Source: Escherichia phage vB_EcoM_F1. Taken from it: a DNA stretch of 64,000 nucleotides. This document shows, one piece after another, positions 32,883 through 42,639 of the stretch. The position numbers and the translations under genes were made by a program. The notes under the pieces are model-generated. The model was given only the letters and a program-made list of their open reading frames with translations. It was not told the origin of the DNA and made no database searches. The stretch lies in sequence record NC_054912.1; one strand, given 5' to 3'. Within the stretch, counting starts at the first letter, position 1. The number at the start of each line of letters is the position of its first letter.

Positions 32883-33356
32883 TTATTTGAATGATTTAAC
32901 GTACTGAATAGAACCTTTACTATTCACGAAAGCGATTTTACCATTTTTATTATACATGGTAGCAGTACGCTGATATCCATAAGTTTGCTTACCAGATTGA
33001 TAACCAACTAATGCGAAATTATCTTCACCCATTTTATTCTGTTTAGCGCGAATGCGTTCATGACCATGTGCCATAAGAACCTTAGCATCACCCGTTGCAA
33101 TGGATCTACGAGTTTTTTCATCTTCAACTGTATTAACAAAGTCGTCAAATGAATCAAATTTAGCATGAGATTTATTATACAGTTTTCCATCTACTGCATA
33201 ATTATATCCTTGTACATCCATCTCAACTTCTGTACCATCATCCAATACAGCAGTGATTTTCTGTCCTTTTTTAAATTTCAAAAGATCAGTAAAAGATTCA
33301 GCAATAATTTGAGAATTAATAGCTGCTTCAGTAATAAATTCTTGATATGTTTTCAT
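32883..33356 (-). CDS. head internal protein (IP-type) with capsid-targeting N-terminus
   Basis: 157 aa; N-terminal MKTYQEFITE|A matches the internal-protein targeting sequence and an LxE/IxE prohead-protease site. Confidence 0.7.
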   Translation of the reverse strand: MKTYQEFITEAAINSQIIAESFTDLLKFKKGQKITAVLDDGTEVEMDVQGYNYAVDGKLYNKSHAKFDSFDDFVNTVEDEKTRRSIATGDAKVLMAHGHERIRAKQNKMGEDNFALVGYQSGKQTYGYQRTATMYNKNGKIAFVNSKGSIQYVKSFK

Positions 33357-33427: not shown

Positions 33428-33958
<531 letters not shown>

Positions 33959-36871: not shown

Positions 36872-37417
36872 TTATATCATGCTATTTAAGAGATGTAAAC
36901 TATTTTTAATTTTACAAATTCGTTCAGCTTCTTCAACAGCGGCGGCGATAATGCTTTTAGCTATAGGAGTACTAATACTAGTAGCTTTTACACTTAACAC
37001 GATTTCTTTATCTTTACCAGGCCAACCCCACGATTTTTCACCATGAGTGCCTTTAATTACAGCAGACACCTCAAGTGAGCATCCATTATCACATGTTTTT
37101 ACATTAACAACCCAAGGATCACTTTTCTCAACCGGTTTATCAAACGGTTTATCCCAGTAAATATTAAGAGTACGTGGGACATCAAATTTAGCAGGGCAAA
37201 TCTTAACCGTAAGACCTTCGCTTTCTAGCCAATTAATAAGAGGGCGTTCATACATGCGGCGATGTGGGCTTTGAACTCGACAAGCTTTGTACCCATTGCT
37301 TGCGGCTTCACTAAGCTCTTCTAATACCTGCTTTTGCATTATTGATAAGATACCATCAAAAGATTTTTCGGAAGTTTCATTCAGTTCGGTATAAAGAGAC
37401 ATAACAGTTTTCCTCAA
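36872..37417 (-). CDS. hypothetical protein
   Basis: 181-aa ORF. Confidence 0.5.
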   Translation of the reverse strand: MRKTVMSLYTELNETSEKSFDGILSIMQKQVLEELSEAASNGYKACRVQSPHRRMYERPLINWLESEGLTVKICPAKFDVPRTLNIYWDKPFDKPVEKSDPWVVNVKTCDNGCSLEVSAVIKGTHGEKSWGWPGKDKEIVLSVKATSISTPIAKSIIAAAVEEAERICKIKNSLHLLNSMI

Positions 37418-37458: not shown

Positions 37459-37776
37459 TTATTTCATATTATTGAAATATTCTTCTGCGATTTCATCGTT
37501 ATCATGGTAAACTTTAGAAGACAGTTTAACATAACCTTCAGCAGTGAACATATTAATCACAACCTTTACAGTATACCACTGTCCGTCTTCATTACCCATT
37601 ACTGCGTAAGTTTCAAACATCGGATGGTCAGGACCGATAACTTTAATATCATTCACTGTACGACCAAAATCTTCTGAAACGCATTTCATAAAGAAGTTGA
37701 ACAGTTCGCCGTAATTATCCATTTCATTCTCCAAGTTGTTTTTCTGTATCAGTAGTTGATAGTTGTATAGTACCAT
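37459..37776 (-). CDS. hypothetical protein
   Basis: 105-aa ORF. Confidence 0.5.
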   Translation of the reverse strand: MVLYNYQLLIQKNNLENEMDNYGELFNFFMKCVSEDFGRTVNDIKVIGPDHPMFETYAVMGNEDGQWYTVKVVINMFTAEGYVKLSSKVYHDNDEIAEEYFNNMK

Positions 37777-37797
37777 GGAAGAACAGGGATGTAAACC
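37763..37797 (-). promoter_or_regulatory. T4-type early promoter
   Basis: gttgtatagtaccatgg ... gtaaacc module. Confidence 0.5.
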
Positions 37798-37923: not shown

Positions 37924-37958
37924 ATACCAAAAAGCCCCAACCTTTCGGCTAGGGCTAA
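37924..37958 (-). terminator. terminator hairpin, copy 1 of a 35-bp direct repeat
   Basis: Minus-strand RNA forms a 9-bp stem with GAAA loop and U5; the plus-strand version has two mismatches that are G-U pairs only on the minus transcript. Confidence 0.6.
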
Positions 37959-37963
37959 GAATG

Positions 37964-38437
37964 TTATTTGATTTGTTTAGCAGACCAAATGCGGTCTTTA
38001 ATAATTTTTTGGATGTCTTCAACATACTCAAGAGAGTGAGCATGTGGGTTATCTTTGAAACTATAAGCACGAGCTAGTTTTTGGCCTTCAGTTTTGATTA
38101 CTAAAAGCTCTTTAAGGATAGCTTCATATTTGGAGATAATTCCTTTAACAATATTTTTCTCTTGTGCGACTTTAGGATCTGCTTTAGGAGCAGGTTTACC
38201 CGAAGCCTTTGCAAAAGCAGCGCCAGTAGCAACTAAACTTTTCCAGGCCATACTAACTGCATTTCCCGTAAATCCTTCCGCTTTCATGTCGCGTGCGAAC
38301 TGGAATCGTGATTCATCAGAAGCATCTTTGTAAGAATATTTACCCGCTGCAATGGCTGCTTTTGCGACAGCTTGAATTTCGGTGCTAGATGCTTCATTTA
38401 ACACCGCTTCATTTAAAAATTGAGTATATGATTTCAT
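37964..38437 (-). CDS. head internal protein (IP-type), second copy class
   Basis: 157 aa; N-terminal MKSYTQFLNE|A targeting sequence. Confidence 0.65.
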   Translation of the reverse strand: MKSYTQFLNEAVLNEASSTEIQAVAKAAIAAGKYSYKDASDESRFQFARDMKAEGFTGNAVSMAWKSLVATGAAFAKASGKPAPKADPKVAQEKNIVKGIISKYEAILKELLVIKTEGQKLARAYSFKDNPHAHSLEYVEDIQKIIKDRIWSAKQIK

Positions 38438-38478
38438 CTTATTTCCTGTTTTAATTCGTGGATTTAATATACTACTAT

Positions 38479-38486
38479 ATTTATAC
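38479..38486 (-). promoter_or_regulatory. late promoter (TATAAATA) for the IP gene
   Basis: Plus tatttata about 40 nt upstream of the IP start. Confidence 0.6.
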
Positions 38487-38518
38487 CAAAAAGCCCCAAC
38501 CTTTCGGTCGGGGCTAAG
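38484..38518 (-). terminator. terminator hairpin, copy 2 of the 35-bp direct repeat
   Basis: ataccaaaaagccccaacctttcgg... near-identical to copy 1. Confidence 0.6.
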
Positions 38519-38566
38519 CCTTGCGGCAACCTTGTCGGGGTTCCACCTGCTAAGGCAAGTGTTTGT

Positions 38567-38658
38567 ACGAAACGCCGGGATTCGAACCCGGTTATTAAGC
38601 AGTTGACGCTACTCAATATTTTTAAAAGGCCATATCTCGACCATATCCGAACGTTCCG
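38567..38658 (-). ncRNA. tRNA-like structured RNA candidate (possible stable RNA species)
   Basis: Canonical T-arm CCGGG-UUCGAAU-CCCGG with flanking 7-bp acceptor-like pairing (CGGAACG / CGUUUCG), but a 60-nt insert; no ORF in 38520-38824. Confidence 0.35.
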
Positions 38659-38824
38659 TCAAAAACGCTACTCGGCTTATGGCAAAGATATTTCCTCGAA
38701 TCGATAATTCGGTGCGCCGTTTCTGCTGTGATGTAAGAGGGCATCAATAAACGCAAAGATTATTAACGCAATTCCTTACTCAGGGAACATCAGTCCGACG
38801 ACTTACCGGTAGCGACCCGGTTTC

Positions 38825-39175
38825 TTAATATTCTTTTAAAGAATCAATATATTCACGGCGTTTACGCCACAAATCAATTGCTTCATACGCGGATTCAGCA
38901 TTTCGAATTGGTCGGCATTTATGTAAAGACTTATGATTTTGATATTTTGTAGATAATGGAATTTTATCTAAAAGGTCTTTACGTTCAAAGTATTCGTAAC
39001 CATCTAAGCCAAATGAACGATTTTTGAGAAATTGCCAATGACCAAATTCGTTTTGAATATAAATATAATCCGCATGTTGATAAAGTAAATTAATTTCACG
39101 AAATGAGATATGTTTTTCATATTCATTGAAGTAAAATGTTAAATCATGAACTACTAAATAAACATTACCTTTCAT
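38825..39175 (-). CDS. hypothetical protein
   Basis: About 116 aa from MKGNVYLVV with a GAGGAA RBS; the listed ORF start at 39223 would overlap tRNA-Arg. Confidence 0.5.
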   Translation of the reverse strand: MKGNVYLVVHDLTFYFNEYEKHISFREINLLYQHADYIYIQNEFGHWQFLKNRSFGLDGYEYFERKDLLDKIPLSTKYQNHKSLHKCRPIRNAESAYEAIDLWRKRREYIDSLKEY

Positions 39176-39193
39176 ATTTTCCTCACTTATAAT

Positions 39194-39273: not shown

Positions 39274-39939
39274 TTAAAATTTCATTTTTCGACCTTTAAA
39301 CCATCCTTCTGGAATTGGGTCAGTTTTCTTAATACGTTTAGAAACTTTTTCATCTAATGAATGAATCCACATCATACCAAATTGGGAATTCTTTTCACCT
39401 TTCTGGTGATTATTTTTAGCGTGAATTTCTTTCATTTTATTAATAGTTTCAAGAGTATGATGCTTATTTAAAAATCTGCTATTATTTAAAAATTTTTCCC
39501 TGTATTCAGGAGTTGACCACAAGCGTTTAAATACATTTGAACCATGTTTACGATATTTTTCTTGAAGTAAAATATCATTTTTAAAACGTGACTTAAACGA
39601 TTTAGCTCCTTTTAAACTAGCGTCTTTCTTCTGGTTTAGCATCTCAGGAATATTTATATGATCCCATCCGCCTTCACCGCCAAGTTTTAAATTATACACA
39701 TCTGGTCTATTTAAAAACTCTTCTGTGACAATATTTTTCTCGGCTTCAAGCATAGATTCTTTATCATCAAAATATTCTAATATTTCTTTAGAAAAATTTT
39801 CTATACCATACCTGTCTTGGGCTCTTTTTAATAATTTACCAGAACCCATATATCCATCATCTAAATTTTCGGTAGAATGCACACCAATATAAATTTTATT
39901 ATTAATTTTATTTGTTATTTTATAAGTGTAATGGAACAT
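39274..39939 (-). CDS. segB: GIY-YIG homing endonuclease SegB
   Basis: 221 aa; YTYKITNKINNKIYIGVH GIY-YIG motif; sits inside the tRNA cluster as in T4. Confidence 0.85.
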   Translation of the reverse strand: MFHYTYKITNKINNKIYIGVHSTENLDDGYMGSGKLLKRAQDRYGIENFSKEILEYFDDKESMLEAEKNIVTEEFLNRPDVYNLKLGGEGGWDHINIPEMLNQKKDASLKGAKSFKSRFKNDILLQEKYRKHGSNVFKRLWSTPEYREKFLNNSRFLNKHHTLETINKMKEIHAKNNHQKGEKNSQFGMMWIHSLDEKVSKRIKKTDPIPEGWFKGRKMKF

Positions 39940-41326: not shown

Positions 41327-41504
41327 CTTTAGAAATTTTATCCATAACGATAGCGATTAAACCAACTAAAAATGCTACTACAAGTGAAAAAACATTTTCT
41401 GCTGTAGTTAATAATCCGCATATAAATCCAACAAACATTGAAAAACTAAAAGCGGAAGCAGAAATTGCAATAGCAACATTTCGAATTAATTCACAACGTT
41501 TCAT
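41319..41504 (-). CDS. small membrane protein
   Basis: 61 aa, largely hydrophobic. Confidence 0.45.
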   Translation of the reverse strand: MKRCELIRNVAIAISASAFSFSMFVGFICGLLTTAENVFSLVVAFLVGLIAIVMDKISKGE

Positions 41505-41528
41505 TTTATTCTCCTCAGTAGTTGATAG

Positions 41529-41565
41529 GGTAATAGTATCACAACTAAAACCCTATGTAAACAAC
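41529..41565 (-). promoter_or_regulatory. T4-type early promoter
   Basis: ggtaatagtatcac ... tgtaaacaac module. Confidence 0.5.
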
Positions 41566-41579
41566 TTTGTGAAAATTTA

Positions 41580-41870
41580 TTACAAAAGATTTTTTGCAAT
41601 AATTTTAAGCTGAGCTACTGAAATATGCTTGGCTTTAAACAAAGCAGTTTCTTCAGCAGGGGAGATAACGATTGTAGCACCATCTTTCTTAGCGGACCAT
41701 CCATCACCCAGGTAAACAGTACCTTTGACTTCTTCGCCATCAACCAGACTAATCATTGGTTTACCTTCTCGTCCTTTATTTGCTTTAATAACTTCAGAAG
41801 TAAGAGTAGCTTCGGTAATAGTAGAAACCGGGGTAGTTGTAGTAGAAGTAAATTCTTTAAATGTTTTCAT
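41580..41870 (-). CDS. ipI: internal protein I (IPI), injected inhibitor of GmrSD-type restriction
   Basis: 96 aa; targeting sequence ends ...TITE|A, leaving a 76-aa mature part ATLTSEVIKANKGREGKPMISL... that matches IPI* as I recall it. Confidence 0.8.
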   Translation of the reverse strand: MKTFKEFTSTTTTPVSTITEATLTSEVIKANKGREGKPMISLVDGEEVKGTVYLGDGWSAKKDGATIVISPAEETALFKAKHISVAQLKIIAKNLL

Positions 41871-41896
41871 TTTATTTTCCTAATTAATTTTGATGA

Positions 41897-41930
41897 GGTA
41901 ATAGTATCACTACCTCATCAGCATGTAAAC
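41897..41930 (-). promoter_or_regulatory. T4-type early promoter upstream of ipI
   Basis: ggtaatagtatcac ... tgtaaac module. Confidence 0.5.
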
Positions 41931-41942
41931 AACTTTGTGAAA

Positions 41943-42639
<697 letters not shown>

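Follow-up and report, generated by a model that had tools for sequence, protein, structure and literature searches.

A stretch of 64,000 nucleotides from Escherichia phage vB_EcoM_F1 (NC_054912.1; the whole 64-kb stretch is called the window) carries, between rnaC and e.8, a 157-amino-acid (aa) open reading frame (ORF) that is bracketed by direct repeats and preceded by a late promoter box. An initial annotation, made from the sequence alone, had described it as an internal protein (IP) gene packaged as a cassette. The sequence of the window matches Escherichia phage vB_EcoM_FN (MZ170041.1) at 100% identity, record positions being higher than window positions by 32000, and its phage is a Tequatrovirus of the RB51/RB68/RB32 type. 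The features of the cassette, in window positions, are as follows.

37964-38437, minus strand: 157-aa ORF (phrog_2280; RB32ORF132c / RB68_138 / fD1 g140), start MKSYTQFLNEAVLNEA...
38408-38437, minus strand: leader MKSYTQFLNE, codons 1-10, capsid-targeting-like, with an L-x-E↓A protease motif at its end
38483-38518, minus strand: upstream repeat copy and terminator; stem 38492-38515, GAAA loop, U5 38487-38491
37924-37959, minus strand: downstream repeat copy and terminator; stem 37933-37956, GAAA loop, U5 37928-37932
38478-38485, minus strand: late promoter box TATAAATA (T4 type), fused to the 3' end of the upstream repeat
38442-38447, minus strand: Shine-Dalgarno (SD) sequence AGGAAA, 4 nt before the ATG, read from the sequence

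The cassette and its product

The two direct repeats are 36 nt each with an identity of 33/36, and with up to 3 mismatches these two copies are the only matches in the window (0.00 expected from shuffles). Folded as minus-strand RNA, each repeat gives a GAAA-loop hairpin with a stem of 10 bp and U5 directly behind it, at energies of -20.5 kcal/mol (z -2.5) and -21.6 kcal/mol (z -3.6), and both copies rank top among the terminator-like sites of the region. Folding of the plus strand gives -10.1 (z +0.2) and -16.0 kcal/mol, with no U-run after the stem. The 3 differences between the copies are all in the 5' arm, and pairing in the minus-strand RNA is kept through A-U or G.U pairs. In a set of 12 hairpin variants from different genomes, 86.7% of cells are paired, versus 28-68% with a slid partner; one pair shows a full compensatory switch from C-G to G-C, and two inner stem pairs are open in a subset of the variants. 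Both hairpin copies have also been annotated as "terminator" around g131c by the independent annotators of phage fPS-2. The upstream hairpin would thus be the intrinsic terminator of the tRNA/rnaC unit, insulating the ORF from early transcription, and the downstream hairpin, 4 nt beyond the stop codon of the ORF, would be the terminator of the late transcript.

The distance from TATAAATA to the ATG is 40 nt. In an alignment of 10 cassette upstream regions (those of the 153-157-, 187- and 205-aa ORFs and of a DUF7338 membrane ORF, all described below), the exact TATAAATA follows the hairpin in 7/10 and ATAAATA in 10/10, and AGGAAA is present in 9/10. The downstream copy has no late box after its hairpin (GGTATC... 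instead). This arrangement suggests that the ORF is made late, at prohead assembly. Set beside the initial annotation, the repeats are as near-identical as was described there, but 36 nt long rather than 35 bp; the terminator form (stem plus U5) is found on the minus strand only, as was claimed for the hairpin in general, which was slightly overstated for the upstream copy; and the late promoter does lie upstream of the gene, but not strictly between repeat and gene, as it overlaps the repeat by 3 nt.

Leaders of the MKTYQEFIAE type are described as capsid-targeting sequences (CTS), with the prohead protease cutting after the Glu of (L/I)-x-E (Mullaney and Black 1996; PMC3012670). The N-terminus of the 157-aa ORF, MKSYTQFLNE, aligns with those of IPII and IPIII (MKTYQEFIAE↓A) and Ip4 (MKTYQEFITE↓A), with M1, K2, Y4, F7 and E10 identical and the S/T and L/I differences conservative. 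As sequence motifs, prohead-protease sites are present at residues 7-11 (F-L-N-E↓A) and again at residues 12-16 (V-L-N-E↓A), the VLNE of the second being codons 12-15 (to 38393). Among 10 leaders drawn from both kinds of locus (rnaC-e.8 and classical IP), the same five residues are invariant, with 21 synonymous and 0 non-synonymous codon differences, and the remaining positions show 37 synonymous and 126 non-synonymous differences. Selection appears to act on the leader peptide, since the invariant residues have only synonymous codon changes, even at a different locus. On this comparison the leader is conserved as a peptide and not merely as DNA, and the promoter module does not impose it, because the DUF7338 ORF has the same module without the leader. 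In a six-frame translation of the window, the leader motif is found in two ORFs only, the 157-aa ORF and Ip4. The earlier reading of this N-terminus as a capsid-targeting and prohead-protease-type sequence is thus borne out, both by the match to IPII, IPIII and Ip4 and by the protein-level constraint.

The predicted mature protein has 142-147 aa and is basic (isoelectric point (pI) 9.5; K+R 24 vs D+E 16-17). Its AlphaFold2 model (pLDDT 74, moderate) is all-alpha: it has two helical subdomains and, between them, a linker rich in K, P and A. No family was found for the 157-aa protein in Pfam or NCBIfam and no sequence-profile relative in the PDB, and a Foldseek search of the model against the PDB and BFVD matched only its own family. 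Weak matches to Shikimate_dh_N (E 0.12), a designer PPR and talin R7 were not interpreted. An hmmsearch of 1.84 billion representative proteins returned only 13 relatives, all of them short phage proteins, with no fusion and no context clue among the 13. The ORF is present in 468-510 phage records, from Tequatrovirus, Mosigvirus and, more distantly, Klebsiella and Yersinia T4-likes, and it is annotated as "hypothetical protein" in every one of these records and in all 216 members of its cluster. Among the phages that have the cassette are RB51, RB68 and, from the BASEL collection, Bas42. No Ip annotation for the family was found in public sources; it may be among the more than 30 IP variants that Comeau et al. 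2007 are reported to have counted (as reported in PMC2839356 and PMC12373910).

A homologue of the 157-aa protein with 98.7% identity is g140 of Yersinia phage fD1 (phiD1). In liquid chromatography-tandem mass spectrometry of purified fD1 virions, g140 was particle-associated at the strict threshold (PMC8309999 Table S3); in the same list Ip4 (g129, "Head protein") is present and e.8 (g139) is not listed (PMC8309999). The ORF is thus translated, in the form of its fD1 homologue, and the detection is weakly consistent with packaging.

Empty and filled sites between rnaC and e.8

The genes of the region are all on the minus strand, with the transcription order tRNA cluster with segB, rnaD, rnaC, cassette, e.8. 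The neighbouring features are as follows.

40549-39194, minus strand: tRNA cluster, including an intact segB
~38829-38566, minus strand: rnaD and rnaC (T4 species 2 and 1 stable RNAs), transferred from the RB68 annotation
38566-38704, minus strand: rnaC (species 1 stable RNA), last gene of the tRNA/stable-RNA unit
37459-37776, minus strand: e.8, identified from the T4 and RB68 annotations
37767-37795, minus strand: sigma-70-like early promoter of e.8 (TTTACA-17-TACTAT, with TG)

The rnaC coordinates were transferred from the RB68 annotation (L001 3667-3805 = window +34899), and rnaC is 98% identical to T4 rnaC; both stable RNAs are well conserved in the window, but Rfam has no family or model for rnaC or rnaD. 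As e.8 has its own early promoter, it is independent of read-through.

In T4, 284 bp with no annotated gene separate e.8 and rnaC, and there is exactly one repeat copy, 47 nt after rnaC. The window and T4 are collinear on both sides up to the repeat and differ there by 559 bp, which is the ORF with its promoter plus one repeat copy. A gene plus one repeat is what homologous recombination between direct repeats would be expected to delete, or the reverse event to add. When a 47-nt hairpin sequence is used as query, it matches at two places in ORF-carrying genomes and at one in T4, T2 and Sf24; hairpin-bearing genomes number ~850 in all. With the T4 junction as query, 671 matching records were found, from which 60 evenly spaced rows were classified. 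The contiguous empty site is seen in 6/60 (T4 twice, T2, PST, RB6 and pSe_SNUABM_01) and a site split by ~549-559 nt in 21/60; the remaining rows keep the rnaC-side flank only, the insert being larger or of another kind, or the sequence having diverged. Empty sites of the T4 type are thus the minority state, and this probably explains why the locus has gone unlisted in the T4-centred literature.

The repeats are first of all ordinary terminators, since the single copy of T4 follows the tRNA/rnaC unit and the core hairpin recurs elsewhere, and this is a caveat on the cassette reading. The hairpin core (GGCCCTTCCGAAAGGTTGGGCC plus T-run) is also found at a second, unrelated locus in Mosigvirus-like IMG/VR genomes (L023, L038, L051, L054, L055), and a cousin hairpin (GCCCCGGCCGAAAGGTTGGGGC plus T-run) recurs in unrelated small phage contigs of ~14-38 kb (various, L016-L058). 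GC stems with a GAAA loop are used again and again as terminators. In Tequatrovirus genomes, however, the repeat copy number tracks the presence of the cassette, with junctions at the repeat. The initial annotation had named, as what would speak against a cassette, repeats that are ordinary terminators found at unrelated loci and show no correlation with gene presence; the former is what is seen, but the correlation with gene presence is there. It had also proposed a comparison of T-even genomes for presence or absence of the cassette with repeat-defined breakpoints, and this comes out positive, in T4 and in the sample of 60. Overall, its cassette interpretation is supported; the anti-restriction role suggested there stays an analogy.

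The interval was mapped in 12 genomes: the window, RB68, T4 and ten IMG/VR genomes. Apart from T4, where it is empty, it holds a single ORF of 153-157 aa or one of three pairs: 154-157 aa with 187 aa (RB14ORF136 type), 184 aa (DUF7338, membrane) with 205 aa, and 157 aa with 184 aa. Every array ORF is preceded by a hairpin, T-run, (T)ATAAATA, ~25 nt, SD and ATG, and the last hairpin before e.8 is without a late box in the mapped arrays. The 157-, 187- and 205-aa proteins all belong to phrog_2280 (E 1e-53 to 1e-60, full length), and members of this family start with a leader of the form MK[ST]Y..FL.E. In BLASTP, the 157- and 205-aa proteins show 26% identity (E 5e-9), 187 against 205 is marginal, and 157 against 187 matches in the leader only. 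The three ORFs were also considered as unrelated payloads, which was rejected, as PHROG and BLASTP together show one deeply diverged family.

The cassettes of L010 (157 aa) and L009 (205 aa) are 97-100% identical over a block of ~115 nt that takes in the hairpin and everything up to and including codon 17; beyond it, identity drops abruptly to ~50%. On this alignment the drop in identity reads as a recombination footprint at the end of a shared 5' module. At the 3' end of the 187-aa ORF, the GGGCTTTTTGGTATCTAGG tail is kept but attached to a different stem, suggesting crossovers within the hairpin 3' arm or T-run, and at the 3' end of the 205-aa ORF there is an unrelated UUCG hairpin. In the double-cassette genomes (L004 1603-1785, L006, L007), the 187-aa member has a 42-nt insertion between the T-run and an AATAAATA box.

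Other differences from T4 lie close to the cassette. An extra 116-aa ORF (38826-39176, minus strand; phrog_3355, RB68_139 type) stands between rnaD and tRNA-Arg, which abut in T4; compared with T4 there are thus two small insertions within 1 kb. A 181-aa ORF (36872-37417, minus strand; phrog_6869) takes the place of T4 e.7, a further replacement within this hyperplastic region. The intact segB (39274-39939, minus strand; 96% identical to T4 SegB) lies between tRNA-Arg and tRNA-Met, ~840 bp upstream of the cassette, and SegB-driven co-conversion of the tRNA region could take the cassette along in mixed infections. A convergent adaptive single-nucleotide polymorphism was reported in rnaD of a lab-evolved T4-like phage (2025, PMC12685909); rnaD is immediately upstream of the cassette locus.

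Proposed mechanism and rival explanations

The locus is probably a self-contained late cassette for a capsid-targeted, injected protein, at a third IP locus between rnaC and e.8, with a probable anti-defence role, and we hold this reading as a whole, mechanism included, to be considerably better than an even bet. The upstream hairpin, the anatomy of which is seen, would stop the early/middle tRNA-rnaD-rnaC transcript, and TATAAATA, by its sequence and conservation, would start gp55-dependent late transcription, so that the protein would be made during prohead assembly. The leader MKSYTQFLNE would bring the protein into the scaffolding core, where the gp21 protease would cut after Glu10 and perhaps after Glu15, giving an N-terminus at Ala11 (AVLNEASSTEIQAVAK) or Ala16 (ASSTEIQAVAK). 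The mature product, a basic, all-helical protein of ~15.5-16 kDa, would be packed and injected with the DNA, as the leader indicates and virion mass spectrometry weakly supports. The downstream hairpin would end the late transcript before e.8 with its own early promoter. Recombination between the 36-nt repeats would delete the gene and one repeat, giving the T4 state, and the reverse event would insert the cassette; of the two, it is the part played by the repeats in gaining the gene that we infer. Recombination within the shared hairpin-promoter-leader module would swap the protein body. After injection, the mature protein would most probably disarm a first-response defence, most likely Type IV restriction, by analogy only with Ip1, Ip2, Ip3 and Bas37_0260. 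Ip1, Ip2 and Ip3 are inhibitors of Type IV restriction, each acting on a different enzyme of the GmrSD type (PMC12373910), and IPIII acts in trans without its leader. The CTS-bearing Bas37_0260, at the ipI locus, is an McrBC inhibitor, as shown by knockout (HIDEN-SEQ preprint, 10.1101/2025.11.20.689424). The divergence within the family (26% between 157 and 205 aa) and its narrow distribution (13 representatives) fit an arms-race gene.

A number of points weigh against this reading. The homologous flanks of rnaC and e.8 allow transfer of the gene between close relatives without the repeats, which are strictly needed only for precise deletion. The window has 14 copies of TATAAATA where 11.5 are expected, and thus no enrichment, so the weight of the box comes from its position and cross-genome conservation and not from its frequency. 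In Jiaodavirus phiKp_22 a distant homologue adjoins the tRNA cluster, preceded by a AGCCCCGTC-UUCG-GACGGGGCU hairpin, T-run, TATAAATA, SD and MKFKEFLAEAS, and its flanking hairpins are not repeats of each other. What is conserved across genera, on this comparison, is terminator, late promoter and leader, a point in favour of the cassette design, with repeat identity lineage-specific and not required. Packaging, cleavage and injection in this phage are predictions from the sequence. The fD1 virion data are of low specificity, as about half of the fD1 gene products were called particle-associated and the strict list also has DenV, lysozyme and NudE, with thymidine kinase sub-threshold (PMC8309999); the detection of g140 thus adds about a two-fold likelihood at most for packaging. 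Only the leader aligns with IPI, IPII, IPIII and Ip4; beyond it, the protein resembles IPI*, IPII, IPIII and Bas37_0260 neither in sequence nor in fold. However, the known Ips share nothing with each other beyond the leader (PMC12373910), so this is no argument against the function. Ip4-10 gave no reproducible GmrSD inhibition on the panel tested (PMC12373910), and a Type IV target therefore cannot be assumed.

The main rival accepts packaging and denies anti-defence: the protein would be a basic head-filling or DNA-condensing core component, and the duplicated terminator a passive by-product of the arrival of the gene. The charge of the mature protein and its helical AlphaFold2 model with a flexible K/P/A linker suit DNA contact, a head-filling role has long been supposed for IPII and IPIII, and both the lack of resemblance to any inhibitor and the results for Ip4-10 agree with it. 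Against this rival, the gene is dispensable (T4, T2, PST and RB6 are without it), and it is hypervariable and narrowly distributed, the typical pattern of accessory arms-race genes. A function has been assigned to four CTS proteins, the basic IPII and IPIII among them, and all four inhibit restriction. This explanation is unlikely, although it deserves more weight than the two that follow. That the protein is not packaged at all could be argued from the low specificity of the virion proteomics and from the identity block, which spans the first 17 codons, so that likeness of leaders at this locus could be inherited and not selected. Yet M, K, Y, F and E are kept despite codon changes, including in IPII, IPIII and Ip4 with different flanking DNA, the late promoter fits prohead timing, and the DUF7338 membrane ORF has the same promoter module and no such leader. 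Absence of packaging thus appears quite improbable.

As an origin for the repeats, target-site duplication by a mobile element or by homing, for example SegB-driven, is suggested by the direct repeats flanking the insert and by the intact segB upstream. This was rejected as scarcely credible: the repeat pre-exists as a terminator in empty sites, a length of 36 nt greatly exceeds that of usual duplications, no transposase or endonuclease is encoded in the insert, and T4 carries segB yet has an empty site, so that SegB at most promotes co-conversion. The preferred reading of a late cassette with a probable anti-defence product can also be taken further, with rnaC-e.8 as a third IP locus holding an integron-like array of slots (terminator, late promoter, SD and leader) that swaps phrog_2280 inhibitors of host defences that T4 and T2 cannot counter; this extension is put forward tentatively, and we would not quite favour it over its negation.

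Internal proteins that are injected encounter host immunity before any other phage molecule does, and in 2025 all three T4 Ips and one Ip of a BASEL phage were reported to be specific Type IV restriction inhibitors (PMC12373910; 10.1101/2025.11.20.689424). The phrog_2280 family was probably left out of Ip screens, because the site is empty in T4 and the family is "hypothetical" in all ~470-510 phages. If injected inhibitors are indeed encoded at this third locus, they would help to explain host-range differences among near-identical T4-like phages. The natural pair of empty and filled sites is in addition suited to studying short-homology recombination in T4-like phages.

Comparison with known systems

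The kind of element is already known from the IP cassettes of T-even phages; what differs here is the unlisted third locus, the late-promoter variant of the linker and the unannotated family. T-even IP genes are described as polymorphic, with a conserved leader and repeated regulatory sequences alongside (Repoila et al. 1994, as cited in PMC12373910, PMC3012670 and PMC2839356). With these IPs (IPI, IPII, IPIII, Ip4-Ip10) the 157-aa ORF shares a ~10-residue leader MK[ST]Y..F[IL].E with a prohead-protease site, non-essentiality, polymorphism between close relatives, a mature part without a conserved domain and repeated regulatory flanks. It differs in its locus, rnaC-e.8 against 57B-tRNA.4 and denV-e for the described IP loci; the 2025 paper speaks of "the two Ip loci" (PMC12373910), and IP genes are stated to be absent elsewhere in T-evens (Arbiol et al., PMC2839356). 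The mature part of the 157-aa protein is unrelated to any named Ip, and its flanks are a GC-rich GNRA-loop terminator plus late box, whereas the classical repeats are early-promoter based with weak AT-rich stem-loops (PMC2839356). Late promoters in the repeats of classical IP loci were also considered and dropped, as both PMC2839356 and the ipI flanks in the window are of the early-promoter type.

Both classical loci can be seen in the window. The ipI gene (41580-41870, minus strand) has a direct repeat "tttcacaaagttgTTTACA...gtgaTACTAT" on both sides (41480-41960), with an AT-rich stem-loop in the spacer; this flanking element belongs to the early-promoter, PeSL-like type described for classical IP loci, and e.8 has a similar early promoter in front of it. 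At the classical ipII/ipIII locus, the gene that comes next after e (lysozyme, 33428-33922) is that of Ip4 (32883-33356, minus strand; DUF7412, "IpIV internal head protein"), and tblastn of T4 denV, ipII, ipIII and e.7 gave no match anywhere in the window.

Like the 157-aa ORF, Bas37_0260 was previously unannotated, was recognised by its N-terminal packaging signal, and stands at a conserved site, in place of T4 genes or in addition to them. It differs in lying at the classical ipI locus and in having a function shown by knockout, the 157-aa protein being known here from sequence. The morons of lambdoid phages (Hendrix et al. 2000, as described in PMC2839356) share the layout of a single accessory gene with its own promoter and terminator between resident genes; as far as they are described there, they differ from the cassette, in which the neighbours have the same orientation, the terminator is shared with the upstream operon and the junctions are set by homologous repeats.

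PeSLs and PmSLs (Arbiol et al. 2010, PMC2839356; Comeau et al. 2014, PMC4122927) are the closest in structure, with a terminator stem-loop and promoter before small accessory ORFs and copies on both sides of the ORF at indel or replacement breakpoints, and they have been proposed as recombination linkers. The promoter is different, late TATAAATA here against sigma-70-like early (PeSL) or MotA middle (PmSL), and no -35/-10 pair, the defining promoter feature of a PeSL, was found in or beside either repeat. There are also 2-3 copies at one locus here, compared with ~50 per genome. PeSLs form mini-circles, the counterpart of which here is predicted at 559 bp. Judged by its sequence, the cassette linker is most aptly called a late-promoter analogue of these two elements, which extends the idea of promoter-terminator linkers to late promoters.

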